Part shown: one piece after another, positions 21,186 through 54,700 of the stretch
How positions within the stretch are numbered: the stretch's first letter is position 1
Layout of the letters: each line of letters starts with the position of its first letter
Source of the DNA: a virus
Taxonomy: Duplodnaviria > Caudoviricetes
DNA length: 57,846 nt
IMG/VR virus record: IMGVR_UViG_3300043394_000186
Location: 1 to 57,846 of that record
Strand: one strand, 5' to 3'
Position numbers and translations under genes: made by a program
The notes under the pieces: generated by a model
Database searches by the model: none
What the model saw: the letters and a program-made list of their open reading frames with translations, nothing else
What the model was told of the DNA's origin: nothing

Positions 21186-21214
21186 TTGCACCCAGTATCA
21201 CAATGCTGTATTAT
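21186..21214 (+). promoter_or_regulatory. Late promoter upstream of the head genes
   Basis: TTGCAC-17-TATTAT; GTATCACAATG at 21195-21205. Confidence 0.75.
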
Positions 21215-35035: not shown

Positions 35036-35044
35036 GGTATCACA

Positions 35045-35431: not shown

Positions 35432-35622
35432 GTAGTACCACCATGTCATCAATCTCCGAAGCAGAGGCACGCCTCAACTCACACGAAGCTGTATGCGCAC
35501 TGCGCTACGAACAGATCAACGCCCGGCTCAAGCGCCTTGAGGGCATCTTGATGAAGACCGCCGGGATCATGTTGGTCTCAATGGCTGGCGTCATCTATGC
35601 GTCGCTGTCCGGTTTGAAATGA
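35428..35622 (+). CDS. Small membrane protein (holin/XhlA-like)
   Basis: HEAVCALRYEQINARLKRLE plus C-terminal TM. Confidence 0.7.
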   Translation: MSSTTMSSISEAEARLNSHEAVCALRYEQINARLKRLEGILMKTAGIMLVSMAGVIYASLSGLK

Positions 35623-36948: not shown

Positions 36949-37496
36949 TGTCAGACGAGAACAAGCCCGGCAAAGCGTCGCTTGAGACCACCGAACTCAA
37001 AGTCGGTGGTGTCACGCTCAAGGGTTCCTACATCGTGTGGGCGCTGGCACTCGCTGGCTCCATCGCAGGCTCGATCATGCTGGTCGGCGGTGAGTGGGAG
37101 AAGTACCAGCGCGTCAAGGGCTTTGTGTCTGAGTTCAAAGCTCCCAACCTTGAGCCAATGATTGAGTTTGCCGAGAAGGTCAAGCAACTCGAGGACAGCG
37201 CGGTCAACTTGTCTCAGGCCATCGCGGCCAACGAGCAGGTCGGAAACAGGCTGATCTCTGATGTTCAATCCATCACAAAGCTGATGGAAGCCAACGACGT
37301 GTCGAAGCTGCAAGGGGCAATCGCGCAGCTCAAGACGACAGTCGACGGCGTGCAGGTCTTTACTCGAGACGTGCAGGCCTTGCGCGAAGCCATGGTCGGT
37401 GTCCAGAAGGACATGGTCGTGTTGAAGAAAGATGTGGACAGCCAGTGGTCGGCGATTGACTCGATCGGCGCTGGTTCGTTGAAAGGCGGCAAATGA
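36948..37496 (+). CDS. Membrane-anchored coiled-coil protein
   Basis: N-proximal TM followed by heptad-rich helix. Confidence 0.75.
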   Translation: MSDENKPGKASLETTELKVGGVTLKGSYIVWALALAGSIAGSIMLVGGEWEKYQRVKGFVSEFKAPNLEPMIEFAEKVKQLEDSAVNLSQAIAANEQVGNRLISDVQSITKLMEANDVSKLQGAIAQLKTTVDGVQVFTRDVQALREAMVGVQKDMVVLKKDVDSQWSAIDSIGAGSLKGGK

Positions 37497-37729
37497 GATA
37501 CCTGATGTTGGGCCTCGCGCTCATTGCAACGGCGCTACTGCTCGAGGGGTGTGAGGACCAATACCGCTACCCGTGCCAGAACCCGGAGAACTTCTCGAAG
37601 CCGGAGTGCCAGAAGCCGAAGTGCCAGTTCACGCAGCAATGCCCCGAATACCTTGTAGCCCCAATCTTGGAGAAACAGATCAATGCTCAACCTGCTCAAC
37701 CCACCCCCGAAGCAGCACCTAACCGCTGA
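37493..37729 (+). CDS. Cys-rich lipoprotein
   Basis: Lipobox-like LEGC; YRYPCQNP...C...C...CPEYL. Confidence 0.75.
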   Translation: MRYLMLGLALIATALLLEGCEDQYRYPCQNPENFSKPECQKPKCQFTQQCPEYLVAPILEKQINAQPAQPTPEAAPNR

Positions 37730-38183
37730 CGACATCCAGGTCCGCATCTGGGGCTTCGTAGTCATTGTCGTGACGCTGATTCTTGCGTTCATCGTTGCGT
37801 CGATCCTGTACTCGGTGACCTTCGTCACCCAGCCGATCAAGTCGATGGCTCCGATTGATCAGGCCTACACGAAGATGCTCAACGACATCGTGTTGCTGAT
37901 CGTTGGCGGCATCGGTGGCGTCATGTCCAAACGCGCCACGGCTGCTGTGGACAAAGCCATCACGCCCGAGCCGCCCAAGCCCGCAGCGCCCGCACCGGGG
38001 GTCGAGCCCCCAAAGCCACCGGCCCATCCAGTAGTACCTGACTGGAACTGGATGGGCTTTCAGAACGCCCAGCTCGACGAGAACTGGGTGCCGCCACCAC
38101 CACCTACCACTGCACCTGACTACATCGACCCTGCGCACGAGGAGATCGGTCTTGAGCGAGCCGCAGCAAGGAGCGACCAATGA
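37683..38183 (+). CDS. Two-TM membrane protein (holin candidate)
   Basis: Two hydrophobic segments, Pro-rich tail. Confidence 0.65.
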   Translation: MLNLLNPPPKQHLTADDIQVRIWGFVVIVVTLILAFIVASILYSVTFVTQPIKSMAPIDQAYTKMLNDIVLLIVGGIGGVMSKRATAAVDKAITPEPPKPAAPAPGVEPPKPPAHPVVPDWNWMGFQNAQLDENWVPPPPPTTAPDYIDPAHEEIGLERAAARSDQ

Positions 38184-38653
38184 TTGGCCTCCAACGCTTG
38201 GGTATCGCGGTGCTGATCACGCTGCTGGTGATCTTTGGCATCTACCGATTTGGCTACAGCAAGGGCTGGAGCAAGCGAGATGGCGAGATGCAGGCGGCCA
38301 TCGCGCAAGCCAACGAGCAGTCGCGGCAGACCGAGCAGCGGCTCACGGAACAGATCAACGCCAACGCAAACCAACTTCAGGAGGCCAACCATGCGCTCAA
38401 TGAAAAATCTTCTGCTCTTGACCGCGCTATCCGTGCTGGCAGGGTGCGTCTCCCAGCCTCAAGTTGCGTACCAGCCACCGCAGGTCCCGCCGCTCCCGCC
38501 GGAGATCGGAACGAAGAGGTCAGCGAATCTGACCGACAGACTCTCGCAGCTATTGCTGCCATCGTCGCCGAAGGAGACAGGGCCATCAACCAGCTCAACT
38601 CCTGCATCGACGCCTACAACCAAGTGAGGGGGCAGATCAATGGTCAGCACTGA
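38180..38653 (+). CDS. Rz: Rz-like i-spanin
   Basis: N-terminal TM, coiled coil, IRAGRVRL, EGDRAINQLNSCIDAY. Confidence 0.8.
   Translation: MIGLQRLGIAVLITLLVIFGIYRFGYSKGWSKRDGEMQAAIAQANEQSRQTEQRLTEQINANANQLQEANHALNEKSSALDRAIRAGRVRLPASSCVPATAGPAAPAGDRNEEVSESDRQTLAAIAAIVAEGDRAINQLNSCIDAYNQVRGQINGQH
38400..38627 (+). CDS. Rz1: Rz1-like o-spanin embedded in Rz (+1 frame)
   Basis: MKNLLLLTALSVLAGC lipobox, Pro-rich mature part. Confidence 0.8.
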   Translation: MKNLLLLTALSVLAGCVSQPQVAYQPPQVPPLPPEIGTKRSANLTDRLSQLLLPSSPKETGPSTSSTPASTPTTK

Positions 38654-39248
38654 TCAACTCAAGCGCCTTCACATCAACCCAGAGCTGGCCGATGTGTTCA
38701 ATGAGACCTTCGAGCGCTGGGGCATCACCACCGCCCGGCAGCAGGCTGGCTTCATCGGGCAGTGTGGCCATGAGTGCGGCAACTTCACCAAGCTCGAGGA
38801 GGGGCTGAGCTACAGCGCTGAGCGTCTGATGAAGATCTGGCCCAAGCGGTTCCCGACCATGGAGATTGCCCAGCGCTACGCCCGCAATCCCAAGGGCTTG
38901 GCCAACAACGTCTACGCCAACCGCATGGGCAACCGCGATGAGGCGTCTGGCGACGGCTGGCGCTTCCGTGGCTCCGGCTGGCTTCAGCTCACCGGGCATG
39001 CAAACTTCTTCCACGCAGGCAAGGCGATCGGCGTGGACTTCGTCAAGGAGCCCGATCTTGTGCGCACGCCAAAGTACGCGGCGCTGACGGCCGGCTGGTT
39101 CTGGGCGACTCACAACTGCAACGCGCTGGCCGAGGCCGGAGACTGGACGGCGCTCACCCGAAAGATCAACGGTGGGACCGTGGGTCTCGAGGACCGCGTC
39201 AAGCATATTCGTCAGGCGCTGAACGTCCTGAACGAGGGGCTGGCGTGA
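38640..39248 (+). CDS. Endolysin, glycoside hydrolase family 19
   Basis: FIGQCGHECG, YANRMGN, DGWRFRGSGWLQLTG, AGWFW, TRKINGG..GLEDR. Confidence 0.93.
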   Translation: MVSTDQLKRLHINPELADVFNETFERWGITTARQQAGFIGQCGHECGNFTKLEEGLSYSAERLMKIWPKRFPTMEIAQRYARNPKGLANNVYANRMGNRDEASGDGWRFRGSGWLQLTGHANFFHAGKAIGVDFVKEPDLVRTPKYAALTAGWFWATHNCNALAEAGDWTALTRKINGGTVGLEDRVKHIRQALNVLNEGLA

Positions 39249-39269
39249 AGTATCACAATGCTTTAGAAT
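39241..39269 (+). promoter_or_regulatory. Late promoter upstream of the ejection genes
   Basis: TGGCGT-17-TAGAAT; GTATCACAATG at 39250-39260. Confidence 0.7.
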
Positions 39270-39306
39270 TCCTGCCGGGTTGGTCCGTCTGGACCGTACC
39301 CGGTTT

Positions 39307-39335
39307 CGCCCCGCTCCGACGGGGCGTTTTCGTTT
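39307..39335 (+). terminator. Leader terminator before the ejection genes
   Basis: CGCCCCG-6-CGGGGCG-TTTTCGTTT. Confidence 0.8.
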
Positions 39336-39347
39336 GAAAGTCCAGAC

Positions 39348-42300
39348 ATGGCCACATTGACTCAAGACAACCCTTTCGACACCCAGCCAGCAAAGCCTGC
39401 CAACGGCGGCATTGTGGGCGGCGCTATGCGCCAGCCGAGCGCAGGTGACGAAGGCGGCATGCGCCAGCAGCCAACGACTCAGGGCCAACTGCCCGGCAAC
39501 GTCGGCACATCGGCACCTACCACCCCCAACGTGGCGACCTACGCCCCGACAACCCGCCAGATCAACCAGCAGACCGACACGGTTCAGGGTCAGGTCAACA
39601 GCATCCTGTCCAAGGACAGCCCGCTGATGGCCCGTGCCCGCACGCTGGCGACCCAGCAGATGGCTCAGCGCGGGCTAGTTAACAGCTCGATGGCGGCCGG
39701 CGCGGGTGTGGCGGCCATGATCGACCGGGCGACCCCGATCGCTCAGCAAGATGCCAACGCCTTCAATGCGGCCAAGCAGGATAACCAAAGCGCGCTCAAC
39801 ACGTCTGGCCAGTTCAACGCGGCCGAGATCAACAAGTTTGGCCTGCAGACAAGCGAGCAAGGGTTCGAGGCCTCCCAGTTGGCCAAGCAGCAGGAGTTTG
39901 CAACCTCCGAGCGAGTGGGCTCTCAGTCCTTCGCCTCCAGTATGGAGAACGCCAAGCAGAACTTCACTGCGGCTCAGGCTCAGCTCGATCGAGCCCAGCA
40001 GACAGTGTTGGCCGACAAGAGCGTCGAGGCCCAGCAGGCCCTGCAGGTGGCTCAGCAGAACTTCCAAGCCGCGCAGTCGGCTATGGACCGCCTGCAGCAG
40101 ACTGCCTTGCAGACCGGCCAGCAGGCCTTCCAAGCGAGCCAGTCGAGCTTGGACCGCGCCCAGCAGGCGTCCTTGCAGCAGGCTCAGCAAACCTTCCAAG
40201 GCACCCAAGCCGAGCTGGAGCGGGCTGCTCAGATCATGCTGGCGGACAAGAACATCTCGGCAACGAGCGCTCTTGAGACCGCACGCCAGCAGTTCCAAGC
40301 CGGCCAGTCCTCTTTGGACCGCAGCCAGCAAACCAGCCTGCAGGCAGCGCAGCAGAGCTTCACGGCCGCTCAGGCCGAGCTGCAGCGCGCGCAGGAAGTG
40401 GCTCTTGCAGACAAGAGTGTCTCCGCACAGCAGGCGCTGCAGGCTGCACAGCAGAATTTCCAAGGGGCTCAAGCCTCATTGGACCGAGCCCAGCAAAGCG
40501 CCCTCCAGACTGGCCAGCAAACCTTCCAAGCAGGACAGTCTGCGCTCGATCGCGGTCAACAGCTCACGGTGCTTCAGGCCCAGCAAGGGTTCCAGTCGGC
40601 ACAGTCCGAACTCGACCGCGCGATGCAGAAGTACCAGACGGACAAGAGCATCGAGTCGCAGCAAGCATTGCAGGTGGCGCAGCAGAATTTCGCGTCTGCT
40701 CAAGCCGCGCTGGATCGCACCCAGCAGACGGGGATTGTCAATCGCCAGATTGAGGGTCAGCAGCAGTTGCAGACGGCTCAGCAGAACTTCTCGGCTGCCC
40801 AGTCGGAACTGCAGCGCGCTCAAGAAGTTGCTTTGGCCGACAAGAGTGTGGCCGCTCAACAAGCACTGCAGACCGCGCAGCAAAACTTCCAAGGTGCGCA
40901 GTCCGCACTCGATCGCGCCCAGCAAACCAACCTGCAGCAAAGCCAGCAGCAGTTTCAAGGTGCTCAGGCTCAACTCGATCGCACGCAGCAGACTTCTCTG
41001 CAGCAGGCCCAACAGACGTTCCAAGGCTCGCAGGCCGAACTCGAGCGTGCGGCCCAGATCATGTTGGCCGATAAGAACATCTCGGCCCAGCAGGCACTGC
41101 AGAAAGCCCAGCAGGAGTTTCAGGGTACGCAGGCTGGCCTCGATCGTACCCAGCAGGCAGCCCTTCAGCAGGCTCAGCAATCGTTCCAAGGGTCTCAGGC
41201 TGAATTGGATCGCGCCGCGCAGATCATGCTGGCCGACAAGAGCATCACTGCTCAGCAAGCACTTCAGCAGGCGCAGCAGGAGTTCCAAGGTTCGCAAGCC
41301 ACACTTGATCGCGCACAGCAACTGAATGTGCTGACCAAGCAGCAGGGTTTCCAAGCAGATCAGGCGACGATTGACCGCGCTCAGCAACTGCTCATCGCGG
41401 ACAAGAACATCACAGCGCAGCAGGCACTGCAACAGGCGCAGCAAGAGTTCCAAGGCCAGCAAGCTGGATTGGACCGCTCGCAGCAGACAAGCCTGCAGAC
41501 CGCTCAACAAAACTTCCAGTCTGCTCAGGCTGAGTTGGAGCGTGCCCAGCAGAAGGCAATGCAGAGCAACTCGATCCAAGCTCAGATTGATTTGCAGACG
41601 GCGCAACAGAACTTCCAAGGCGCGCAGTCTGATCTCGACCGAGCACAGCAAGTCAACCTGCAGGGAAACCAGCAGACATTCCAAGCGGGGCAAGCCGCCT
41701 TGGATCGCGCACAGCAGACCAGCCTGCAGTCTGTCCAGCAGAACTTCCAGTCTGCGCAAGCAGAACTCGAGCGCGCTCAGCAAACCGCTCTGGCCGACAA
41801 GTCAATCACTGCACAGCAGGCGCTTCAGACTGCTCAGCAGAACTTCGCTTCTGCCCAATCGGATCTCGATCGCCGACAGCAGACTGCGATTCAACTCAGT
41901 CAGCAGGAGTTCACTGCTGCTCAACAGACGATTCAGAACGACTTCGGCTTGCGCGTGCAGCAGTTGCAGGAGTCTGGTCAGAACGAACGTCAGGCCAGCG
42001 AGATCGCATCCCGCGAGGCCATGCAGAAGCTCGAGCAAGCCGGCATTGATAACCGCTTTGACCAAGAGCTGGCGCTCAAAGCCGGCCAGTTCAACGTCGA
42101 GCAGTACAACGCAGAGCGTCGTCTCCTGATTCAGAATCAATCCGAGATGGATCGTCTCGGGGTGCAGATCGAAGCCAATAAGGCAAACATCCCGACTGCA
42201 TTCGCGGCGAACATGAGCACCACCGTGATGAACGGTGTCAACGCGATCATGGCTCAGCCGATGGATGCAAACGGCAGGCCATCTTCCGGCGAGCGCGAGG

Positions 42301-42779
42301 CGCAGGTGCAGTCTCTGGTCAACTACGCCAACTCGCAGTTGAGCTGGGCCGCGAAGTTCTACGGAGTCGCGCTTCCATCAATCAGCACTCCAAGCACTTC
42401 AGGGTCGGCGACTTGGTACAACCCTGCCGCGCAGAACCCCGCGACAGCGCAAGTGGTGACTAAGCCGGTCGGATTGATCGACTCCTCGATGGGTGGGGTT
42501 GCCACCACGGGCAAGCCCGTGGCCACTCAGGACCAGATCAACGCGCGCTATCCGGCCGGATACAACGGACAAGGAGGGTCTCCTGAGTATCAGGCTGCCA
42601 TGAAGGCCGCCATTGAGGCGAACAACGGCAACTTGGTCCTGAGCAATGAGCAAGCGATAGCGGCGGCCGAGAAGTTCAATTCCAAGTACGGAACGAACTA
42701 CACGGCCAAGGATTTCAAGATTGACCTTGCCTCGTTGGGCGCAAATCCAATGCAAATCAGTGACCTGTTCTGGTCATAA
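39348..42779 (+). CDS. Gln-rich hendecad-repeat protein, putative DNA-ejection protein
   Basis: AQRGLVNSSMAAGA N-terminal motif; long QQxF..LDRAQQ repeat; first gene of the ejection cluster. Confidence 0.8.
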   Translation: MATLTQDNPFDTQPAKPANGGIVGGAMRQPSAGDEGGMRQQPTTQGQLPGNVGTSAPTTPNVATYAPTTRQINQQTDTVQGQVNSILSKDSPLMARARTLATQQMAQRGLVNSSMAAGAGVAAMIDRATPIAQQDANAFNAAKQDNQSALNTSGQFNAAEINKFGLQTSEQGFEASQLAKQQEFATSERVGSQSFASSMENAKQNFTAAQAQLDRAQQTVLADKSVEAQQALQVAQQNFQAAQSAMDRLQQTALQTGQQAFQASQSSLDRAQQASLQQAQQTFQGTQAELERAAQIMLADKNISATSALETARQQFQAGQSSLDRSQQTSLQAAQQSFTAAQAELQRAQEVALADKSVSAQQALQAAQQNFQGAQASLDRAQQSALQTGQQTFQAGQSALDRGQQLTVLQAQQGFQSAQSELDRAMQKYQTDKSIESQQALQVAQQNFASAQAALDRTQQTGIVNRQIEGQQQLQTAQQNFSAAQSELQRAQEVALADKSVAAQQALQTAQQNFQGAQSALDRAQQTNLQQSQQQFQGAQAQLDRTQQTSLQQAQQTFQGSQAELERAAQIMLADKNISAQQALQKAQQEFQGTQAGLDRTQQAALQQAQQSFQGSQAELDRAAQIMLADKSITAQQALQQAQQEFQGSQATLDRAQQLNVLTKQQGFQADQATIDRAQQLLIADKNITAQQALQQAQQEFQGQQAGLDRSQQTSLQTAQQNFQSAQAELERAQQKAMQSNSIQAQIDLQTAQQNFQGAQSDLDRAQQVNLQGNQQTFQAGQAALDRAQQTSLQSVQQNFQSAQAELERAQQTALADKSITAQQALQTAQQNFASAQSDLDRRQQTAIQLSQQEFTAAQQTIQNDFGLRVQQLQESGQNERQASEIASREAMQKLEQAGIDNRFDQELALKAGQFNVEQYNAERRLLIQNQSEMDRLGVQIEANKANIPTAFAANMSTTVMNGVNAIMAQPMDANGRPSSGEREAQVQSLVNYANSQLSWAAKFYGVALPSISTPSTSGSATWYNPAAQNPATAQVVTKPVGLIDSSMGGVATTGKPVATQDQINARYPAGYNGQGGSPEYQAAMKAAIEANNGNLVLSNEQAIAAAEKFNSKYGTNYTAKDFKIDLASLGANPMQISDLFWS
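39864..41945 (+). repeat. Degenerate 33-bp-period coding repeat (11/22/33-aa units)
   Basis: Marker Phe residues spaced by multiples of 11; 24 (L/M/I)(D/E/Q)R units. Confidence 0.9.
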
Positions 42780-42784
42780 GTTGC

Positions 42785-43231
42785 ATGATCATCCGCAAAG
42801 CCACCATGCAAGACGTTCAAGCCATTGTCGACATCGCGGTCGAGTCGGTGTCGAGAGACCCGCTGCCGGTCAAGATCGACCGCGAGGCGATGGCCGACAC
42901 GGCGAGAACTTGCTTAAACCCCGCGCACTTCATGTGGGTTGCTGAGCAAGATGGCGAAGTTGTTGCTGCCTTTGCGGCGTGCGTTCAGCCCGCCTTCTGG
43001 TTCACTAAGTTGCAGTGCTCTGTGCTGCTGTACTACACACGCGTAGCTGGAGCAGGTCTGCCGCTCATTCGTGAGTTCTCCAGATGGGTGAAGTCTCGCC
43101 CGGCCATTAAGTTGGCTGTCGTTGAACTTGAGCCGGGGGTCGACCCACGGCTTGTTCATTATTTCAAACGGGTTGGGTTCGCTCGCGAGTCCTTGAACCT
43201 GACTTATGTTCGAGAGGTGTCTCATGTCTAA
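42785..43231 (+). CDS. GNAT-like acetyltransferase
   Basis: MIIRKATMQDV, WVAEQDGEVV, YFKRVGF. Confidence 0.7.
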   Translation: MIIRKATMQDVQAIVDIAVESVSRDPLPVKIDREAMADTARTCLNPAHFMWVAEQDGEVVAAFAACVQPAFWFTKLQCSVLLYYTRVAGAGLPLIREFSRWVKSRPAIKLAVVELEPGVDPRLVHYFKRVGFARESLNLTYVREVSHV

Positions 43232-44117
43232 GGTTGTAAAAAAAGTAGGCCGCGCAATCGGTAAGGTTGTCGAAGGTGTGAAGAAGGTCGTGTCCAAGAC
43301 CTTTGCCGAGGTCAAGCGTTTTGCCAAGTCCGATATTGGCAAAGCGTTGATCATTGCGGCCACAGTCTACTTCGGAGGTGCCGCGCTATCGGGGGCCATG
43401 TCGAGTACGGCGGGCAGTAGCGCGCTGACTGGAATCTCCAATGCGTGGACCAGCCTATCGACCGCCGGAAGTCAGGCGCTTGCCGGCAACTTTGCGAACG
43501 CAGCCAGCGCGCTTGGCACCGGCATTCAAGGCGGCGCTGCGGTTGCGGGTGAAGCCGGCTTGATGACCTCTGGCGTTGGCGGCACGGCCGCGTCTTTCGC
43601 GCCAGTTGAGTCTCTTGCGCCGACCTCCGTGGGCACAACGTCGGGCGCATCGAGCGCTGCACTGTCGCCCGCTGCGCCAGAAGCCGCACTGAACGCTGGA
43701 GCGCCTAACCTCACCAAGCCGGCCGCCGATGCCGCATCCAAAGGATTCTTCTCAAGCGACGTTGCCAAGTACGGTGCGATCACAGCCGGCACTCAACTGG
43801 CCGGGGGCCTGATTCAAGGCGCTGGTCAGCAGAAGGCCTTGGAAGACCAGCGTCGCTACGAGCAGCAACTGTTCGAGCAGCAGAACCAGCGATACGCAAA
43901 CAGCGTGTCTGACTTTGGACAGCGAGCAAGTGCCGACGCTGCAATCATGGCCAGCCGTGGGCAGAACATTTCTCCTGCAGCACCTGCAGCACAGGCCGCA
44001 AATCGCTATCAGCCTGCAGTCCCTCCCGTCTTCGCCGGCGGCCCAGCTCAGATTGGCATGATCAATCGTGCCGCGACTGGAGCCCCAATCTACAACCCTT
44101 ACTACCCGCGCGGCTGA
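43224..44117 (+). CDS. Putative ejection (DNA transfer) protein
   Basis: GAGG RBS; basic amphipathic N-terminus, Gly/Ala-rich hydrophobic segments. Confidence 0.65.
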   Translation: MSKVVKKVGRAIGKVVEGVKKVVSKTFAEVKRFAKSDIGKALIIAATVYFGGAALSGAMSSTAGSSALTGISNAWTSLSTAGSQALAGNFANAASALGTGIQGGAAVAGEAGLMTSGVGGTAASFAPVESLAPTSVGTTSGASSAALSPAAPEAALNAGAPNLTKPAADAASKGFFSSDVAKYGAITAGTQLAGGLIQGAGQQKALEDQRRYEQQLFEQQNQRYANSVSDFGQRASADAAIMASRGQNISPAAPAAQAANRYQPAVPPVFAGGPAQIGMINRAATGAPIYNPYYPRG

Positions 44118-44129
44118 TAGGAGCACATC

Positions 44130-44663
44130 ATGGCTGGATTGATTCAACAACAAATGGGCGCTCCTGCGCCAGAGCCACAAGAGCCACAAGAGCCAGCGCC
44201 AGAGAGCATGGCGATGGAAGGCGAGGAAGCCGCAGAAGGTGGTGATGCAGGAGAAGGCAACCCTGTATTTCAGGAGGCCTTGACTCTTGCGTATCAAGCG
44301 CTCTACGAGAGCGAGGCCGCAAAGGATGTTGCAAAGCAATTGAAGTCTGCGCCCAGCATCGCCGCTGGCATGGCCGACATTGCCTACAACATCACATCTG
44401 TCATCGACGAGCGCACGAGCGGCAAGGTTCCAGACGAGCTGCTGGTTCCTCTGGCGATGAATGTTCTGGAAGAGGTTGGCGAGATTGCCGATGCTGCTGG
44501 CCTCGAGCCGCAGCCAGAGGACATCGCTGACGCGCTGAAGACAATGATCCTGCGCTTTCTCGGTGAGCAGGGTGTCGACACTACGCAGCTTCAGCAGGCA
44601 ATGGATCAAGTCGATCCGTCTGTCTTCCGCAAGGCTGCAGAAGGAGAAAAGGTGCCAGCATGA
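44130..44663 (+). CDS. Acidic hypothetical protein
   Basis: AGGAG RBS. Confidence 0.8.
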   Translation: MAGLIQQQMGAPAPEPQEPQEPAPESMAMEGEEAAEGGDAGEGNPVFQEALTLAYQALYESEAAKDVAKQLKSAPSIAAGMADIAYNITSVIDERTSGKVPDELLVPLAMNVLEEVGEIADAAGLEPQPEDIADALKTMILRFLGEQGVDTTQLQQAMDQVDPSVFRKAAEGEKVPA

Positions 44664-45694
44664 GTGGACTGATTCTGGCCGGACTCGGCAAGGGTATCGC
44701 GGACGCCGGCTCGACGTTTGGCAACGCGATGATGAGGGACTACGAGGCCAAGCGGCAGGAAGAACGCGAGGCATTGCGAGAGCAGCGCCTGCTTGAGCGT
44801 CAAGAGGCGCTTGATCGTCTGAAGGCCGACCGTGAAGAAGCCAAGGCCGAGGGGCTGAAGACCCGCGTGGCCCAAGAGTCGGCCGCCGTCGGCACTCGAG
44901 CCGCTGAAATGGGTGCTGCCCGAGACGCCACCCAGCTTGGTCGCGACGCAACAAAGCTCTCCGGGATCTCTTCGCAGGTGGCTGGCGACTCGCCATCGAC
45001 CACGGACGAAGAGTTCAAGAAGCTGATCGAGGAGAACCCGCAGTACCGCGAGACCTATCGCAAGGCGGGGCTGATCGACAAGGCGATGACGCCCAACCAG
45101 CAGCGCATCCAGCGCGCTGACGACGAGGCCACTGCAGCTCTTGAGATGGGTGCCCACTCCAGCGTGATCGACGCGTATGCGAAGAAGCGCAAGGACGTGC
45201 TGGATCAGATCCGCGAAGAGAACAAGGAGGCACGCGACACCCGCCGCGAAGATCGCGCAGACGAGCGCGAGGCTCGCCGCGATGCTGAGTTCCGCGCCTT
45301 GATGCCCATCCGTATACAGAACGCTGATGCCAACACCACCCGTGCAGGTGCGGCCGTGACCAGCGCGAACAAGCCTGCGTCGGGCAGCAACAGCGCAGAC
45401 AAGCCAGCGACCACTGCCGACATCCAGCGTCAGGTAACTGCTGCGCAGAACGGGTTGGCCACTGATCTGGGTGTGGCGAAGAACGAGATCAACGCCGAGA
45501 TCAAGTCGATCCGCAAGCGTGCCGACGCGGGTAACGCTCAGGCCAAGGCAACACTCGAGCGCATCCAACCAATGCTGGATGAGTTGAACGACGCGAACCA
45601 GCGCATGTTGCAGTTCAAACGCGCCAGTCCTTCCACTTCAAATTCAAGGGATAATTCAACAGCCCGACCTCCGCTCAGCAGCTTTGCTCGCTGA
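44660..45694 (+). CDS. Putative ejection protein (coiled coil)
   Basis: MSGLILAGLGKGI N-terminus followed by a charged helix. Confidence 0.7.
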   Translation: MSGLILAGLGKGIADAGSTFGNAMMRDYEAKRQEEREALREQRLLERQEALDRLKADREEAKAEGLKTRVAQESAAVGTRAAEMGAARDATQLGRDATKLSGISSQVAGDSPSTTDEEFKKLIEENPQYRETYRKAGLIDKAMTPNQQRIQRADDEATAALEMGAHSSVIDAYAKKRKDVLDQIREENKEARDTRREDRADEREARRDAEFRALMPIRIQNADANTTRAGAAVTSANKPASGSNSADKPATTADIQRQVTAAQNGLATDLGVAKNEINAEIKSIRKRADAGNAQAKATLERIQPMLDELNDANQRMLQFKRASPSTSNSRDNSTARPPLSSFAR

Positions 45695-45729
45695 GCAACT
45701 TTCATCAACCTTCGTGACGCTCTATTCCC

Positions 45730-48700
45730 ATGAAGTTCGACATCAATGCAGCCCGCAGCTCCGGGTATTCCGACGACGAGATCGCGGACTACTTGGCAAA
45801 AGAAAACAAGTTTGATCTGAGCGGGGCGTTGAAGTCTGGCTACAGTGCGTCCGAGGTCATCGGCTTCCTGTCTGGTGCCGACGCGGCACCGGCAGCACCG
45901 GCGGAGGCGGTTACCGACACCGGTGACGAGGCCGCTCGCCTTGCAGCCCGGTACAAAGCGCCCGAAAAGCCCGGCTTCATCGAGCGTGCAGCCAGCGCCC
46001 TGTCGTCGATGCTGCCCAAGCCCGTGGACCCCATGGGCATCGCCTCCGGCAAACCGCTTGGCAACACGCAAATTCGGGCCGAGGAGCCCGTCAAAGAGCG
46101 CAAGGCACCTACCCCCTACCGCAACCGCCGCGAGGCGCTGGATGACGCTGTCAACCTGCTGGAAGAGGGCGCAGACCAGAAGGCCGTGACCGAGTCGTTC
46201 GCAAGCGCCGGGATTAAGTTCGACGAGATCGTCGCCCATGGTCAAAAGCGCGGCAGCGAATACTTCAAGCAGCAGCCCGGCATGGAGGTGGCTGACCCTG
46301 AGGTGGCCCGCCTTGCAGCGCGATACCCTGCGCAGCCCACCGGCGAACTCAAGGCGTACGAGACCAGCATTGGCGAGGACATTGCCAACTTCGCCAAGCG
46401 CGTGGCTGGCCGCTCGAGTCAGGCGTTCACCGGCCTGTTGGCCAACACCGGCGTGATCGACGAAGATCAGGCAGCCGCAGCGCTGGCGCGCGACGAGCGA
46501 CGCATTCAAGCGGCCCGTGCGCCTGAGTCCATTCAATCCGGGTTTGAGGAGATTGGCCAAGCCAAGACCTACGGCGACGCGGTGACTGCACTGGCCCGCA
46601 ACCCGGGCGCTACGGCCACCATGCTGGCTGAGTCTGTGCTGATGACGGCCCCTGTGCTGGCCGCTTCTGCAGCTCGCTTGCCAGCCGTTGGTTTGGCCGC
46701 CGCCACCGGCGGATTCTCCGCATCGCTCGAGTACGGCGGTGCCATGGCTGACGTGCTGTCCGAGCGCCGCATTGACATGCTCGACGCCAACAAGCTGGCG
46801 TCTGCCCTGAAAGACCCAGAGATCATTGCCGAGATCCGTGACAAGGGCACAAAGCGCGGCCTGACGATCGGCATCATCGACGGCCTGACCGCAGGCATTG
46901 CTGGCAAGTTCCTCGAGCCTGTCCAGAAGACCATCGCAGCAGGCAAGCTGGCGTCCGACGCCGCTCGCCGGGCAACCGTCGGCGCATGGGCCAAGGAGCT
47001 TGGCGCACAGGTCGCAGGCGGCTCCGGCGGCGAGTTCGCCGCTCAGCAACTGACCGGCGAGAACAAGCCAGCAGACGTGCTGCTCGAGGGCTTGGGCGAA
47101 GGCGTCTCGGCTCCGTTCGAGGCTCGCTCGAATCTGGCGGCATCTCGCAAGCTGGACCCGGCCCAGCAGATCGCCGACGCAATCTCTGGCGTGGACTTCA
47201 CCCAGTCCGGCATCGACGCGACTGTGGCCGACCGTGTGCGCACTGAAGGCATCTCTGACCAGATCAGCCCAGCCGCCACCGTTGCCAGCTTCACACCGGC
47301 CGACAGCCCCACCGCTCAGGCCGGGCTGGCTCCGATCGTGGTGCCTGTGCCCACCGCTGCACCAGAGGCAAACGAGCAGCCTCCCGTGCTGCCCGAGATC
47401 AACCCGTCGACCGAACAAGCCTTCGGCCTCGACACACTTCGCATGGGGACAACCAATGTCAGCACAACTGGCGCATCTGGAGCCGCGCCTGCAGTGGGCG
47501 GTGTCGCAGGGAGCGATCAGCTTGGCGGAAGCGTGGACCTTTCAGGACCTGATCTCACTGGCACCGGACAATTCGCTGGTGGAAGCGCCCGACAGCCTGC
47601 AGCCAATGATGGGCAGGATGTGGCTGTTGGAAGTGCCGCCATTCAACAGCCTGCCGGCGTAAGCGCCGCGCAAGATAACAATGCTGTAGCACCTCGCCTT
47701 GTCGAGCCATGGTTTGGCCGCAAAGGCGGTGGATACACAACGCTGGGCGACGCTGAGCAGGCAATGCCCGGCCGCAAGAGAATGTTCCCCGACCTCGAGT
47801 GGAAGGTAGAGGAAATGCCCAACGGCAAGTTCATGCTTGCTGGCTACGAAATCACCCAACAGGAGACGACCCTTGGCGCTCAAACCCCTCAAGCCATCCA
47901 AGGCCAAGCGCAAGGACAGCAAGCACCTGCCATCGCTGGAGCAGCAAGCCCAGCAATGGGTGAGCCAGTGGCGGTTCGAGGAGCTGCGCCGACGCAAGGC
48001 GGAGATGTCACTGGGTTCGGTGCAGTGGCGACAGGACCCGTCGCTGGACCTCGCGAAGCTGGAACCCTCACTACGCCAGAGGGTGCTTCAACTGCTGGAC
48101 TGACGGCATCGCTGCGCCTTGCCCCGCCCGCACCCGTGCGAGCCATCGGCAAGGCCATCACCACGTTGAGAGACAAGACAGGCGTTGAAGCAGAAGTCGA
48201 CAACGCACCTCTCACGGACAAGCAGCAGGCCGCAAGTGCCGTTGCCCGACTGCTTGGTCGAACCGTCACATACCTCAAGGCAGACACGCCTGCGTCTTTG
48301 CCCAACGGGTTCATGATCACTGGAGACTCGAAGAACATCTTCATCGCCAACGATGCCGAGGATTCCCCTCTGACTGTTGCGATGCACGAGATCTACCACA
48401 CGCTGCCCGATCAACAGCGCAAGGCCCTGAACACTCAGTTGGCCCAGTACTTCCGACAGGACCGCCGCACCGAGTTCGCAGTTGAATTTCAGTACGACTC
48501 GAAGAACGACGCGCTGCTGGACGAGGAGATCCCAGCGTTCATGGTCCAAGCGATAAGCAAGCGCGAGGACTTCTGGCAAGACCTGCGCACGAAGATGGGC
48601 AACGCAGAGTTTGGCGAGGTGGCCAAGGTCATCCTGACAAAGCTGAACTCGATCATCAGCGGCTCCAAGGAGCAGTACGGCGAAGAGTTCGTCAACAAGT

Positions 48701-51700
48701 ACATCACCGACGTGTCCAAGGCGCGCGACCTGTTGACCACGGCCTACGCCGAAGCCATGCAGGCGCAAGGCTTCAAGCCTGACGTCGCAGTCACCGGCGA
48801 CATGATGCCCTCGCAGCGCTCGCGCGTGGACATGAACTTCAAGGACGTCATCAAGCGCACGCCTGAGCTGCAGGCTGCGGCCGAGAAGGTCAAGGCTGGC
48901 GAGATGACCGCCGCTGAGTACGACACGCTGGTCAACGAGGCCAAGCCCGTGGAGCCGTACAAGTCGGTGCCTTCGCCGGCCACCGTCACCGACATCCAGA
49001 CCGCGCTGACGTCTGACAAGACCGAGCGCATTGGCAAGGCCAGCCAGTTGAAGGCAGGCCACCCAGTGGGCCTGCGACTGGACATTCCAGCCTACGCAAA
49101 CCACGGCACATGGGTCGTGTCGGTTCACGAGCAAGAGGCTGGCTACAACGCTGGCAAGTCCATCGGCTACGAGCCCGTGGCTGCGGCCACCAACGTCAAC
49201 TTCGGCGTGGTGGAGAAGGCTGCGATGAACATCGCAAGCGGCAAGCCGAAGGCCACGATCGCTGTGATGAAGGGCAACTGGAAACCAACGACGCCCAAGC
49301 AGGCCTACACCGCCGCGCAGGCAGCGCTCAAGTCCAAGGACTGGGTGCAGGTCGGCATGGACCCTGAGCGTCACTCCTACTTCTACGACCGCAAGACCAT
49401 GGAGCCCGTGGTGTCGGCCGACGAGGTCCTGCAAATCGGTCCTCTGGTGTTGGCGAAGAAGCCTGTGTTTGGCGACAAGGCTGACTTCATGTTCAGCAAC
49501 CGCGCCGCTCCTGAGACGCCTGAGTTCAAGAAGTTCTTTGCCGACTCAAAGGTTGTGGATGCCACTGGCAAGCCAATGGTGGTCTATCACGGGACAAGCA
49601 AAGAGTTCAGCACCTTTAGCCTTGGGTATCGAGGCGACGATCAGGGGAACGACCAATACGGTCCGGGCTACTACACCGCGTCAAGCGCCGAGACTGCTGG
49701 AGGTTACGCCAATGGCGACGGTGCAAACATCAAGCCGCTCTACGTCAGCATAAAGAACCCGATTGAAGAGGGGACAAAAGCCTTCCCTCGCTCGGTCATC
49801 GAGCGCCTCATGCGTGCATCGCCCAGTTTCTATGAATCACTCGAGAACTTCGGCGACATTTCGTTTGAGGGAGAGCGCAAGGTGGTGCGCGGTGCGGTCG
49901 ACGGCTTTGAGGGATTCGACAACGCGCTACTCCAGCTCGGCACGTTGCAGCGTGACTTCTGGCCAAATGATGCCGAAGGATTCTTGCGCGCGGCCAAGGA
50001 AATCACTGGCCACGACGGCGTGACAGTTGAAAGCGGTGGCAACAAGATCTTTGTTGCTTGGACGCCTGAGCAGATTAAGTCTGCCACCGGAAACGATGGC
50101 CAGTTCGATGGATCGAACCCAGACATCCGTCGCAGCAACCGCGCATACGAGGGCGCACCTGACTCCTTGATGGGCTTCAAAAAGAGCGGGCCTCAGACCG
50201 CTTACGAAGACTCCAGGTACAAGAAGGAGATCACGGTCCGCGTCACGTTCGATAACGGCAACTCGATGATCGACGGCATGAAGGGGTTGAACACCCCGCA
50301 CGCCATGGAGCGAGCACGCCGCAACTGGGGTGGCGCAAGAATTGAGCTGTTGGCCGAAGAGCCATACACCGATGATCTGGCTGCACGCTTTGAGGCACAG
50401 TCGTTTGAACCAAACGCCGACGTCATGCCACCAGAGCAGATCCGCGCAGACGGGATCATGTTCTCGCTGCGCAAGGTCGAGGAGATCAACGATGCGCCCG
50501 AGATCACGATGAAGGATCTGGTTGGCCAGACGGTGTTCCCGATCCTTGCCGACCTGACAGCCGCTGGCTACGTCTACATGGGCAAGGAACTGCGTGGCGG
50601 CCCGTACTACACGCTGCTGCCATCGAACTCCAAGGCTGGTCTGATATGGGCCAACGACGGCAAGGGCGTGGCCAGCATCAAGAACAAAAAGGCTGCACGC
50701 GGTGTGATCGGCTTGATCGTTGCGATGAAGCAAGACTCGCACGCGACCAACAACACGGTGGCCAACATCATCTTCCGCGCTGTCGAGGACGAGATTCAGA
50801 AGGGCTCTGTCGCCAAGGCAGACATTCCTAAGCTGGACGAGATCGTGCGTGGCCTTGCTACTCGCACCGCCACCAAGACCCGCAAGGTCGACGGCAAGAA
50901 GGTCAAAGAAACGAAGCAGGTGTTCCCGAAGTTCGCGGACTTCCCCGGCTTCAGCGACCGCGCTGCGTCCGAGAAGTTTCTGCGATCCATGCCATTCGAG
51001 GCACGCGGCCTGTTCTTCGAGGAGATGACCAAGCCCACCGTTGAAGACCTTGGTCTTGGCGTTGTGCGCAAGGTGATCAACGACACGGTCGAGCCAGACC
51101 TGCGTGGTCTGAACATGGGCGACGTGGTCATGGCCATCCGCTTTGATCCCAACGCTGACACGATCGAGCTGGGCGCGAAGACTGGCACGCCCGAGCACGA
51201 CTCCTACCGCTACGGCGTGAAGGGCGAAGTGATCGGAAAGTTCAAGCGTCCGATCTCGTTCGAAAACGTGTTCGTCGAACTTATGAAGGAGCGCCGTGCC
51301 GCCGGCAAGGATCGCCCTGCAGGCAACTACCGCTCGCTCACGCTGCGCAAGCCTGAACAATTGATCACTGAAGAGATCGCAGGCGGCGTCGGTCAGGAGA
51401 AGTACAAGACGTTCAAGACCCCGGCCGAGGCCAAGGCAGCCGTGGCTGCTGCAGCCATGGACTGGAAGGTCATCGACCGCCCCGCAGCCGCAGGCGTCAA
51501 GGAGTTCTTGCGCACGGCCCGCATCTACGGCGAAGGCAAAGTCCCATCGTTTGGCGAAGCCAAGATGCTGATCAAGGATGGGCGTCTGAGCATCTTCCGT
51601 TTGGCCAACACCGAGAGCTGGTTCTCGATCGAGAGCCGAGGCAACAAGCGTGTGATGACCAACGCCATGGTCGCGCAGCCGGGCGTTGAGCGCGACATGC

Positions 51701-54700
51701 TGTTTGGTGACATGGTGTTCCAAGCGCGCGCCAACGGTGCCACGCACATCGAAGAGGGCGGCAAGGTCGAGCCGATCACCGAGCAGAAGGCAATGCGCCG
51801 CGTTGCTCCGATCGTCAGCGAGTTGTCTGAGATGCCGGATGCCGACATCAAGAACTTGGGCATCGACCCCAAGGAAGTCGACCGCCTGAACGGGTTGATC
51901 GGTGAGGGCGAAGAGGAATTCTCGGCAGAAGCGCTGCCCGTCTACAGCAACCGGGCCAAGCCTGAGTTCTTCAGCCAGCTCGAGCGCACCATCGCCAACG
52001 TGCCTGCGAAGCTGGCGACGCAGCCTGCCTCCCAGTGGGCGCTGTGGCTGGACTCCAATGGCCCCAAGCAAGGCGTCAAGAAGGACGAGATGGAGTGGTC
52101 CGGCATCAAGGACTACCTCGCCCTGCGCGGCAAGGACAAGGTCACCAGCGCTGATCTTCAGGCCTACCTGAAGGACGGCGGCGTGCGCGTGGAAGAGACA
52201 ACGCTTGGCGCAGTCGACACCGACAAGATCCTCGACGACATCTCCAACGAGCTGTACGAGAAAGACTACTGGGACCTGAGCGCCAAGCAGCAGGACGTTG
52301 TTGTCGACAAGATGGACGAGCGCTACACGTCGCAGACCAAGTACGACAAGTACACACTGCCCGGTGGTGAAAACTACCGCGAGCTGCTGATCACGTTGCC
52401 GAGCAAGAACCCTGTTGCCGGGATCTCTCCTGTGCAAGCGGCCCGCGTCTTGTATGGCAAGGAGTATTCGACACTGACTTCTGAGCAGCAGGACGATGTC
52501 AAGCGGAAGATCGCTGACGACAAGTCTCCAACCTCCTATATGTCCAGCCATTGGCAGCAGCCCAACGTCCTCGCCCACATCCGCATCAACGACCGCACCG
52601 ATGCCGACGGCAACAAGGTTCTGTTTGTGGAAGAGGTGCAGTCCGACTGGGGTCAGGACGGGCTGAAGAAGGGCTTCAAGGGCAAGACACAAGAGGACGC
52701 TAAACGGTTCTTCGGCATCACCGATTCAGACTGGTCCAAGACCAGCGAGATGGACCGTGAGGCGTACCGAAACGAGATGCTTGATTCCAAGGGACGTGAC
52801 ATCATCCCCATCGCTCCGTTCGTCACCAAGACAGAAGGCTGGCTCAACCTTGCACTCAAGCGCATCGCCATGATGGCGGTGGAAGAGGGCTACGACAAGG
52901 TGGCCTTCGTCAATGGCCAGCAGTCTGCTGACCGTTACGACTTGAGCAAGTCGATCAGCTCGATCAGCTACGAGCCCGGCAGCAAGCCAGAGAACGCGGG
53001 CCTGCTGCAGGCTTGGGATCTGGACCGTCAGATGGTCATGAGCGAGATGGTCACCACCGACCGCATCGAGGACTACGTCGGCAAGGAAGTGGCTGTGCGT
53101 TTGCTCGAGACCGACAAGGTCATGGGCAAGCACATGCTCGACGGCGAGAACATCAAGGTCGGCGGCAAGGGCATGATCAAGTTCTACGACGAGATCGTCC
53201 CGCAAGCTATCACAAAGCTGTTGCCGAAACTGGGGGGCGAGAAGCTGGGCAAGGTTGGCATTGACGTCGGCCTGAACAGCAGCATGTCCTACGAAATCAA
53301 AGAGAAAGATGACGGGCGGTTTGCATTGCGGGCTCGCGCCGATGCCAACTCTCTTTGGGCTCCTTATGGCACCTATGACACCAAGGCGCTGGCGGAGCAG
53401 CGCATGTCTGAACTGAAGGCTGAATCCGAGGCCAGCGAGCAACCCGGCTTCGACGTCACCGACAAGATGCGCGAGACCGTGGGTCAGGGCCTGCCGATGT
53501 TCAGCAAGCGCGTACAGCCCACCGACTGGCGCGACGAAGCTGGCCGCGTCCGGTTCATGCCCGGTGCAGTGGCCTACCGCTATGCCGCCGACATCGCCAA
53601 CAAGCTGCTCGACAAGACCCCGCTGATCGGTTCGCTCAAGCCCATCGACAAGGACCTCGCGCTGGCCATGCGCCGCATGAAGGCCGAGATCGAGAACGCA
53701 CAGACCCGCACCGCTGGCGTGGCCTCCAAGTTGGGTGAGCTGCCAGAGGACGAGCGCAAGCTGATCAGCGACGTGATCGAGGGCGAACTCAAGCGCGGCG
53801 TGAAGCCCGCCAAGCGAGTGCTCGAGGTGGCTGCATCCATGCAGTCGATCATGTCCGAGCAGAGCGCTGAGCTGGTCCGTCTGGGCATGCTGACCTCCGA
53901 CGCAGCCAGCCGCTGGGACGGCAAGTACCTGCCACGCTTCTACGAGCAGACGCTCAAGAACGAAGCCAGCCAGTGGGCCAAGGCAGCCAAGGCATTGCTT
54001 GGCCGCAAGAAGACCATGCAGGGCATCAAGGGGTCCAATCTCAAGGGCCGTGGCATCTTCGAGACCATCCCCGTGGACGAGCTGGAAGCGTGGCTGGCCG
54101 AGGGCTGGGAAGAGCGCGATGCTAACTTCGACCCAGCCACCGACACCGAGATCACAGTCTGGCGCGACTACTCCCGTGCTGAGCGGGAGAACATGGGCGA
54201 GATCCGCGATGCCATGTTCCGCTTCGTCATGGGCTACATGAAGAGCCAGCGCGACGTGGCCCTTGGCCGCTTGTACGAGAACCTCGCCGACACGGTGGCC
54301 AGCAAGTCCGAGAAGGAAGGCTACGTGCAGGTGCCCAAGACCAACATCGAGGACACCACCGCCCGCCGCTACGGCAAGCTGTCTGGCAAGTGGGTGCCGC
54401 AAGAGGTGCTCGACCACCTGAGCGCATTCGACAGCAGCATGGAAGGCGACCTGCTCAAGGTCTACCGCAAGGCGCTGTCAATGTGGAAGGAAGGCAAGAC
54501 CGTGCTGAACCCGGTCGCGCACGCCAACAACGTGCTGTCCAACCTGACCATGGCCCACTTCGCTGGCGTGTCCTACTGGGACGCCAACAAGTACCTTGGT
54601 GCCGCAAGCGACATCGTCAAGGGCGCGCCGATGCTGGCCGAGGCACGCGAGGCTGGCCTGTTCGGTGGCACTGTGTCGCAGGCTGAGCTGGTAAGCATGC

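Follow-up and report, generated by a model that had tools for sequence, protein, structure and literature searches.

What would a short-tailed phage do with a rod-like protein built from 63 successive 11-residue (hendecad) repeats? The question is raised by one gene in IMG/VR record IMGVR_UViG_3300043394_000186, the window of this study, which is a whole virus genome of 57,846 bp with a CheckV completeness of 100%. The gene product, termed here the rod protein, was originally predicted from the DNA letters alone to be an ejected, length-tunable DNA conduit of about 100 nm, much longer than a normal periplasm and perhaps meant to cross a capsule or S-layer. Our analysis places it, with a rough probability of 0.55, among the internal virion proteins that are ejected with the DNA, as one of five cysteine-free products of its transcription unit. 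Ejection is supported indirectly, by the structure of the operon, by synteny with the cassettes of N4, T7 and P22, and by an avoidance of cysteine that the rod protein has in common with its giant polyvalent neighbour. We infer its presence in the virion, its ejection, the docking of its N terminus and a role in a tunnel. Ejection proteins of podophages are a known kind; the regular family described here appears to be new, and its mechanism is one that we infer.

A strictly phased hendecad rod

The repeat region runs from F173 (base 39864) to F866 (base 41943), which are 693 codons apart, exactly 63 x 11. All 29 phenylalanines within it fall into a single residue class modulo 11, and each of their 28 spacings is 11, 22 or 33 residues; an 18-residue spacing is absent among them. 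Units of the form QQxFQxxQxxLDRxQQxxL are present, together with nine copies of an 11-residue insert, ADK(S/N)(I/V)xAQQAL. The DK[SN] sites of these inserts lie at residues 223, 300, 355, 432, 498, 575, 630, 685 and 817, with an equivalent SNS at residue 740, and neighbouring DKS sites are separated by 55, 66 or 77 residues, that is, by 5, 6 or 7 hendecads. The phase does not slip over any of the 63 units, the nine inserts included.

Hydrophobicity along the protein has its strongest period at 3.667 residues (11/3; power 340.8, z = 36), judged against 1000 shuffles with a mean power of 8.8, a standard deviation of 9.1 and a maximum of 91.7. The heptad period of 3.5 gives no peak (power 3.2, z = -0.6). 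The repeat and Fourier analysis thus upholds the original description of this region in every particular, namely about 690 Gln-rich, 11-periodic residues with Phe at 11, 22 or 33 and outermost markers 63 x 11 codons apart.

The core positions of the hendecad are a (F/Q/A), d (A/S), e (L/Q) and h (L/A/K). Glutamine accounts for 200 of the 700 residues between 171 and 870 and is dominant at positions b, f, i and j, and large hydrophobic residues make up 18% of the rod. The insert has Lys at core position h, and its hydrophobic residue is displaced to j. The rod contains no Cys, His or Trp, and the protein as a whole has no membrane-like segment, its top Kyte-Doolittle 19-residue window reaching 0.93.

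A late unit laid out like an ejection cassette

A late-promoter-like motif and a terminator-like hairpin lie between the endolysin gene and the rod gene (Table 1), so the rod gene opens a late unit of its own. The unit continues with a GNAT acetyltransferase, p303, p177, p344 and a 3395-aa (amino acid) polyvalent protein, which is taken to be a giant ejected cargo. The 19-base TATCACAATGnTTTAGAAT-like motif, with up to 3 mismatches allowed, has three copies in the window (16778-16796, 21196-21214 and 39251-39269), all on the + strand and against 0.01 expected. These copies head three late blocks, the first for the terminase, the second for scaffold, capsid, tail and lysis genes and the third for the rod protein, and each is followed 30-90 bases downstream by a hairpin and T-run. 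The hairpin before the rod gene (39307-39326) has the most G-C pairs (7/7) of the 11 terminator-like sites in 34500-46500. Counting the window's own, TATCACAATG is carried by 7 of the 12 upstream gaps examined in the family, and all 12 fold into a hairpin with a T-run before the start codon. The motif is a putative promoter. Its layout, with a hairpin following the motif, resembles that of antiterminator-dependent late promoters, a type represented by lambda PR'-tR', which needs an antiterminator.

The composition of this unit is maintained in relatives. A pattern scan of IMG/VR confirmed 459 relatives, of which 77 loci were retained for neighbourhood analysis; blastp found neighbours homologous to the GNAT in 63 of them, to p177 in 54, to the polyvalent protein in 36 and to p344 in 29, many of the 77 being interrupted by contig ends. 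The same gene order is seen in contigs of divergent members from metagenome-assembled genomes (MAGs), where a small downstream gene overlaps the stop codon of the rod-gene homologue and, in L086, is again a GNAT. Three cultured phages carry the family. In vB_Pun_Y3, a tail fibre is followed by a 519-aa family member, an N-acetyltransferase, proteins of 317, 216 and 318 aa, and a giant DdrB-ParB protein. In StenR_269, a 299-aa member (pairwise blastp E 6e-8) stands directly after a nozzle-like gene and is followed by three small genes and a putative virion RNA polymerase. DES1 has a family match.

This layout is the same as that of the N4 cassette, transcribed in the order gp54, gp53, gp52, gp51, gp50 (PMC13434306), and as that of T7 gp12-gp13-14-15-16. 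The set from the rod protein to the polyvalent protein lies downstream of the adaptor, p680 and p869 and includes the largest (putative) ejected protein. The genes of T7 gp15, N4 gp51, DEV gp72 and P22 gp20 are likewise clustered, with the tail genes on one side and the gene of the largest ejected protein on the other.

Gene order also bears on a rival explanation, which puts the protein on the outside of the particle as a fibre or whisker. As in SU10 gp12 or T4 fibritin, the N terminus of a trimeric coiled coil would be attached to the SU10-type adaptor or to the neck, and a module at the distal end could be present or absent. The conservation of the N-terminal peptide, the changing length of the rod and a C-terminal tail that is both optional and variable (DUF4214 in 3 of 18 family members) would suit such a protein, and fast length change is common in phage fibres. 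The SU10 adaptor is described as docking a fibre with a coiled-coil proximal part (PMC9509320), and the adaptor of the window belongs to the same Pfam family. However, a lysis cassette and the terminator-like hairpin separate the rod gene from the tail genes, and the gene is co-oriented with those of the polyvalent cargo. The fibre role is already filled by p869, which has tail-fibre PHROG matches, and by p1621, two proteins that differ much in length and in the loci carrying a homologue. A conserved C domain followed by a dispensable tail is unlike a receptor-binding tip, and the hairpins predicted for the rod would misfit a parallel trimer.

Cysteine avoidance and the GNAT partner

In the Schitoviridae ejection operon, Cys is reported to be suppressed against a background of 0.865%, which is attributed to passage through the periplasm (PMC11445570), where the suppression is described as conserved. 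Our controls show the same pattern: P22 gp7, gp20 and gp16, T7 gp15 and gp16, and N4 gp50, gp51 and gp52 have no Cys and T7 gp14 has one. Of 13 control neighbours (portal, tail, spike and others), 11 have 1-8 Cys; the P22 gp26 needle and the N4 capsid protein have none. In the window, Cys is absent from the rod protein (0/1143), p177, p344 and the polyvalent protein (0/3395), p303 has a single Cys in a doubtful N-terminal extension, and the GNAT has 3 in 148 residues. Across relatives, Cys per 1000 residues amounts to 0.20 for the rod protein, 0 for p303 (3 homologues), p177 (7628 residues) and p344 (7812 residues), and 0.17 for the polyvalent protein (11 Cys in 63663 residues). The corresponding values are 19.3 for the GNAT, 16.5 for the endolysin, 6.7 for the adaptor, 6.6 for p1621, 6.3 for p680 and 1.95 for the fibre-like p869.

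Because the composition bias of the rod itself excludes Cys, a separate count was made of the non-repeat parts. In 43 family proteins, the N domain and the C domain with its tail have 0 Cys in 12352 residues; the two Cys-bearing stretches found in this count sit upstream of the conserved start motif. Set against 1.95 per 1000 in p869, this argues against a fibre. The Cys pattern, as read from sequence, suggests grouping the rod protein with the ejected proteins and not with the fibre, and we consider a fibre or whisker distinctly unlikely. The GNAT, cysteine-rich amid a Cys-free gene set, is probably not ejected and would stay in the cytoplasm.

The constancy of the GNAT and of the polyvalent protein at these loci is also what a second rival would predict. 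In this explanation the protein is an internal assembly factor: as a spacer, tether or chaperone, it would recruit the giant polyvalent protein to the procapsid or arrange it there. It may be modified by the GNAT, and it may or may not leave the capsid. The start of the GNAT gene overlaps or abuts the rod-gene stop codon in many loci, RimI-like solo GNATs are reported among the late genes of polyvalent-carrying phages (PMC5512222), and accessory modules of the family resemble the tandem 'GYSxxEI' motifs at polyvalent N termini. A tether would tolerate free variation in length, yet why it should avoid Cys or hold strictly to the hendecad phase is not evident. It is also unlikely that the hinge residue acts strictly as an acetyl-lysine, since Arg replaces Lys in 34 of 440 insert motifs. 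An assembly factor is an unlikely reading.

Predicted shape of the rod

AlphaFold2 predicts the full-length rod protein to be all-helical (predicted local distance difference test, pLDDT, 67; predicted template modelling score, pTM, 0.31), as it does a 340-aa relative from locus L075 (pLDDT 67, pTM 0.26). The helices of the full-length model are interrupted, by DSSP, on the DKS/KS residues at six of the nine DK[SN] sites (223, 355, 432, 498, 575 and 817) and at SNS740. The blocks around these breaks have a pLDDT of 80-92; site 575 is the exception and, like the sites 300 and 630, is in a stretch of low confidence. Site 685 is unbroken. With DKS sites 55, 66 or 77 residues apart, the monomer model would be a zigzag of arms of about 8-11 nm rather than a 100 nm rod. 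The sequence of the insert, with Lys at h and the hydrophobic shift to j, agrees with a turn at these sites. The original claim of a single helix of about 690 residues therefore holds for helical content and for the strict 11-residue phase, and is not supported as to continuity, the predicted helices being interrupted at DKS sites.

Comparison by VIA-align was used for model geometry and not for homology, since for helical repeats a Z below about 13 may mean generic geometry. Two stretches of the model, residues 462-537 with DKS498 at the centre and 704-780 with SNS740, superpose on antiparallel alpha-hairpins, among them the coiled coil of hantavirus N (2ic9; Z 11.1, root-mean-square deviation (rmsd) 0.9 A over 74 residues) and AcrA (2f1m; Z 9.8, rmsd 1.8 A over 74 residues). 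The likeness to these proteins, and to the AcrA/MexA membrane-fusion hairpins in general, is a local one of generic hairpin geometry, for which no homology is claimed. Against a wide library, VIA-align gave only generic helical hairpins, with Z at most 8.2 for the 340-aa model and 11.4 for the full-length one. Foldseek found nothing in the PDB at E <= 0.001, and in BFVD only uncharacterised proteins of uncultured phages. A trimer prediction for residues 195-525 with alignment A1 gave no verdict, scoring 0.00 against a mark of 0.42, the fold of the partner being uncertain.

These models bear most directly on the explanation that lay behind the original prediction, in which a continuous helix of about 690 residues would assemble into a Gln-lined alpha-helical barrel of about 100 nm, like that of phiX174 H, and conduct DNA across a thick envelope to which its length is tuned. 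The evidence for ejection serves this explanation as well as it serves ours. The hendecad phase, unslipped over 63 units and nine inserts, would be expected of a helix that runs on uninterrupted in one state at least. The H tube has N, Q or R at 18 of its 23 lumen positions, and the H protein contains hendecads (PMC7354561); the rod likewise combines 63 hendecads with Gln at b, f, i and j. However, the helix breaks at DK[SN] sites have a pLDDT near 90, the segments centred on hinges superpose on antiparallel hairpins, and the insert contains a real break in the hydrophobic seam. In our judgement, 18% large hydrophobic residues also seems low for a two-seam barrel. H itself is described as having just 3 hendecads, with 11 heptads, in a decameric tube of 170 A (PMC7354561), whereas the rod protein has 63 hendecads, no heptad signal and predicted hairpin turns.

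Both proteins are Gln-rich and helical and contain hendecads, and H is ejected. The structure of phiX174 H is deposited in the PDB, and the PDB sequence search with the rod protein found no chain at E <= 1 and so no sequence relation to H. Taken with the variation in length described below, a continuous tube is very unlikely. Of the claim of an ejected DNA conduit of about 100 nm, ejection thus retains indirect support from operon, synteny and Cys content, and the continuous Gln-lined tube is not supported, hairpins being predicted at the ADKS inserts.

Modular variation in length

Complete family proteins range from 332 to 1207 aa, and the shortest have about two repeat units and end directly after the C domain. 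Rod length varies over a 4-fold range among otherwise syntenic phages. Very similar proteins differ by whole hendecads: the 99% identical pair L004/L007 by 66 residues, the 98% identical pair L038/L042 by 77 residues and the 93% identical pair L070/L071 by 22 + 11 residues. The expectation that indels in relatives are multiples of 33 bp (11 residues) was thus confirmed in near-identical pairs. The 4-fold range in syntenic phages and the differences of 66-77 residues between proteins 98-99% identical speak against a length fitted to one envelope, and none of the results relates to a capsule or S-layer. The same differences, and the shortest members with their two or so units, also argue against a continuous tube.

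The distance between N-terminal and C-terminal anchors is 7 modulo 11 in 35 of 41 library hits having both anchors and in 34 of 44 unique proteins from IMG/VR plus the window. With the anchor moved before a variable loop of the C domain, 34 of 40 agree, the window protein included, and 559 of 593 rod Phe residues in 35 relatives are in the commonest phase. As evidence of selection on phase, the anchor distance is weak, and indels in steps of 11 are no proof of it, because the outcome would be no different if 11-based units were duplicated or recombined unequally.

A better argument for a structural basis of the periodicity is offered by divergent members, whose repeats are quite different. L083, L084 and L085, on contigs of MAGs labelled Acetobacteraceae, Rhizomicrobium and Alphaproteobacteria, keep the N domain and build the rod from a different unit (IQSNTTLTAQDK..., IQSNTTLTAQDKQ...), which by our reading is 33 residues long. 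The IQSNTTLTAQDKQ unit has no Phe marker, yet a D-K pair is present. Across 440 hinge motifs of the family, the hinge residue is K in 393, R in 34 and another residue in 13.

Comparison with known ejected proteins

The best-fitting role for the rod protein, more uncertain than ejection itself, would be that of a part or extension of the periplasmic conduit, by analogy with the class of T7 gp15 and N4 gp51, since the protein is slender and helical and has no membrane-like segment. Members of that class are likewise described as slender and helical (PMC13434306, PMC8954989); they are cysteine-free and have no membrane segment, and gp15-like proteins also vary in size, from 431 to 982 aa (PMC8954989). 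In contrast, no sequence or fold relation to the periplasmic-tunnel proteins is detectable, a long, strictly phased hendecad array is unreported for them in the literature searched, and the rod family is set apart by its length changes between near-identical phages and its always coupled GNAT gene. In the literature searched, the combination of a strictly phased 63-hendecad array, modular changes in length and a constant GNAT partner is undescribed.

Tape measure proteins (TMPs) of the TP901-1 type offer a further comparison, as they are helical, have Phe every 11 residues and gain or lose whole repeat units (PMC5099701). Aromatic markers at 11 are equally found in the rod protein, at all 28 Phe spacings, and TMPs leave the virion at infection. 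However, the rod protein has no hydrophobic regions, no 18-residue units and no match to a TMP profile. A scan with PHROGs and Pfam, which covered 29 of the larger open reading frames (ORFs) of the genome and left the smaller ones unscanned, found no long-tail module: no tail tube, sheath, tape measure, tail chaperone or distal tail protein. The absence of a long tail, as originally proposed, is thus supported by a complete genome, and also by the relative StenR_269, a podovirus by electron microscopy whose head measures about 80 nm and whose tail is short and non-contractile (PMC10747016).

Proposed mechanism of ejection

In our reading, the short conserved N-terminal peptide on its disordered linker would possibly act as a docking peptide. 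By analogy with N4 gp52, whose residues 1-16 dock in the adaptor/portal lumen (PMC13434306), it may dock in the lumen of the adaptor or portal. A hydrophobic seam every 11 residues (11/3 per turn) would give nearly straight helices, the 11-residue ADKS(I/V)xAQQAL inserts would serve as turns or hinges, and the monomer rod would fold as an antiparallel alpha-hairpin zigzag with arms of 5, 6 or 7 hendecads. A slender polar rod free of Cys, His and Trp could then be threaded through the portal and the tail channel. Once outside, it would come together again with p303, p177 and p344, as one part of the trans-envelope conduit or as its periplasmic extension, p303 being the membrane-inserting partner. 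SU10 is reported to release five kinds of ejection proteins (PMC9509320); its adaptor family is also found in the present phage, whose late unit has five cysteine-free proteins.

Several points weigh against ejection. Virion proteomics was not found for any carrier, the term 'mass spectrometry' occurring 0 times in PMC10747016, the StenR_269 paper, and no paper on vB_Pun_Y3 having come up. No similarity of sequence or fold to known ejection proteins was found by hhalign, PDB sequence search, Foldseek or VIA-align; in particular, hhalign of alignment A2 against P22 gp7 and gp20, T7 gp14 and gp15, and N4 gp51 and gp52 gave probabilities below 1%. A spread from 332 to 1207 aa in one phage type is hard to fit to a load-bearing tunnel in a constant periplasm. 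The hairpin model is a monomer AlphaFold2 run with a pTM of 0.31, and such runs can fold back extended oligomers. Since the biased composition of the rod is enough to keep Cys out of the repeats, weight can be given solely to the 12352 non-repeat residues, and absence of Cys is not exclusive to ejected proteins, as the N4 capsid protein, the P22 needle and the putative scaffold p296 show. Known ejection proteins are reported to have less than 10% identity among themselves (PMC8954989, PMC13434306). The P22 gp26 needle, compared with A2 in the same way, also gave an hhalign probability below 1%, and kinship with P22 gp7, a lead from the ESM Atlas, was not supported by hhalign.

A more speculative version of ejection can be considered, which we regard as improbable. 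The hairpin zigzag stored in the capsid would be a spring-loaded, length-modular device whose hinges straighten on ejection, so that the arms become continuous, nearly straight helices bundled into a long rod or tube with a polar core, its reach being set by the number of 55-, 66- or 77-residue modules. Such hinges could straighten because the hendecad phase is exact across every one of them, and this exactness would fit a straightened state. Phages would gain or lose modules in single recombination steps, and the coupled GNAT may prime the rod by acetylating its N terminus or the hinge Lys at core position h. A strict requirement for acetylation of the hinge lysine is weakened by the Arg and other residues found there.

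Domains of the rod protein and extent of the family

Members follow a common plan of N-terminal peptide (MATxxxNPFDTQ), predicted disordered linker, N domain, repeat rod of variable length and helical C domain ending in W..FY..P (Table 1). In alignment A2 (28 sequences), M1, T3, N7 and P8 are invariant, and the first 69 residues of the rod protein have an AlphaFold2 pLDDT below 50. The N domain is the portion matched in most HMMER hits and in StenR_269. Invariant columns of the C domain are N995, W1000, Y1005, P1010 and P1015. The tail beyond it is missing from the shortest relatives and replaced in others by DUF4214 or other small modules; in the window protein it is modelled with a pLDDT below 50 at residues 1016-1061 and 1063-1082, followed by short helices.

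By sequence, this is a large family without a name or a Pfam or PHROG model. HMMER against 1.84 billion representatives returned 2980 proteins at E <= 1e-3, 749 at <= 1e-10 and 103 at <= 1e-30. Pfam and PHROGs, tape-measure profiles included, gave 0 families for the rod protein at E <= 0.01, and tblastn of the full protein against INPHARED gave no match at E <= 1e-5; the relatives in cultured phages StenR_269, DES1 and vB_Pun_Y3 surfaced only with domain-sized or relative-derived queries. A PDB search with the A2 profile gave four weak, unrelated matches (E 0.06-0.55), and PDB sequence searches with p344, p303 and the polyvalent protein gave nothing meaningful. The ESM Atlas returned unnamed viral clusters only, its leads to P22_gp7, DUF3597, DUF7934 and DUF4214 (0.82-0.85) being under trust level.

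Table 1. Coordinates of the rod gene, its parts and the genes and signals of its late unit
Feature	Coordinates	Strand	Basis or remark
Late-promoter-like motif TATCACAATGCTTTAGAAT	39251..39269	+	gap after endolysin stop codon
Terminator-like hairpin (7 G-C pairs) and T-run	39307..39336	+	12 bases before rod-gene start codon
Rod gene	39348..42779	+	1143 aa
N-terminal conserved peptide MATxxxxNPFDTQ (residues 1-13) and linker predicted disordered, to residue 69	39348..39554	+	alignment A2, pLDDT
Conserved N domain, residues 70-172, motif RGLVNSS...GAGVAAM..D..PIA..DA	39555..39863	+	invariant columns in alignments A1 and A2
Hendecad rod, residues 173-866	39864..41945	+	63 x 11 residues, 22- or 33-residue units, nine ADK(S/N)(I/V) hinge/turn motifs
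Conserved helical C domain, residues 867-1015, end W1000..F1004 Y1005..P1010	41946..42392	+	invariant columns, predicted helical
Optional C-terminal tail, residues 1016-1143, and stop codon	42393..42779	+	relatives, pLDDT
GNAT acetyltransferase, directly downstream of the rod gene	42785..43231	+	phrog_1249 at 1.9e-12
p303, Gly/Ala-rich, one membrane-like segment (residues 47-65)	43206..44117	+	Kyte-Doolittle 19-residue window 1.7
p177, acidic, cysteine-free	44130..44663	+	homologues
p344, charged, helical, cysteine-free	44660..45694	+	homologues; weak match to StenR_269 258-aa protein
3395-aa polyvalent protein, ART-PolyVal domain, no Cys	45730..55917	+	PF18760 at 5.8e-23

Genome context

The left side of the genome encodes a helicase, a Cas4-like exonuclease, a Sak4-like protein, a primase and a RusA-like resolvase. 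It is followed by the large terminase, a T7-type portal, the major capsid protein and an SU10-type adaptor (PF24175, 1.3e-16), and then by the 680-aa protein, the 869-aa fibre-like protein, the 1621-aa protein, small membrane proteins and a GH19 endolysin. In INPHARED, the capsid proteins most similar to that of the window (33-42% identity) come from an uncultured Manatee Spring phage, Pseudoalteromonas phage vB_Pun_Y3, Stenotrophomonas phage StenR_269 and Xanthomonas phage DES1.

Within the late unit, p303 is a candidate membrane-inserting ejection protein, and equivalents rich in transmembrane segments stand at the same place in L083, L084 and L086. The N termini of the giant polyvalent proteins (window 45730-45880; homologues in L003-L076) begin with interchangeable short tandem motifs, such as KFDINAARSSGYSDDEIADYL x2, KYLSDDEVFGT x2 and RFVPISEFEKEE x2. 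Modules resembling G(Y/F/L)(S/T)xxEI are optional ends of the rod-family proteins P0003, P0005, P0006 and P0008. Judged by these motifs, the tandem repeats may be a docking or targeting module common to the giants and the rod family.

Among the tail genes, the 680-aa protein (25319-27361), encoded after the adaptor, is homologous to the 'tip attachment protein' of StenR_269, and its last ~150 residues match the amidase PHROG phrog_5107 (6.9e-14); this could be a tail protein that ends in a cell-wall hydrolase. The 1621-aa ORF (30170-35035) lies in the sole low-GC stretch (0.53-0.55 against ~0.60-0.64 elsewhere), has homologues in 5 of 77 loci and looks like an exchanged receptor-binding protein. 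ARAGORN called an 85-nucleotide tRNA-Thr(CGT) at 38028-38112 on the - strand, within a + strand ORF (37683-38183). The call is probably spurious, since Rfam finds no tRNA in the window at gathering score, and Rfam gave 0 matches of any kind for the whole window.

Implications for short-tailed phages

No parts of short-tailed phages are less well understood than the ejection proteins, which as a rule are recognised only by size and gene position. Members of the present family can be separated from fibres and enzymes by gene order together with Cys avoidance. The constant GNAT partner, which is probably cytoplasmic, suggests that a modification takes place during the assembly of ejected proteins; general literature searches found no description of such a step, no search dedicated to it having been made. 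From 332 to 1207 aa in 11-residue steps, the family forms a natural length series, with which it could be asked whether conduit or cargo proteins need a particular length. The three cultured carriers, StenR_269, DES1 and vB_Pun_Y3, make a bench test possible.

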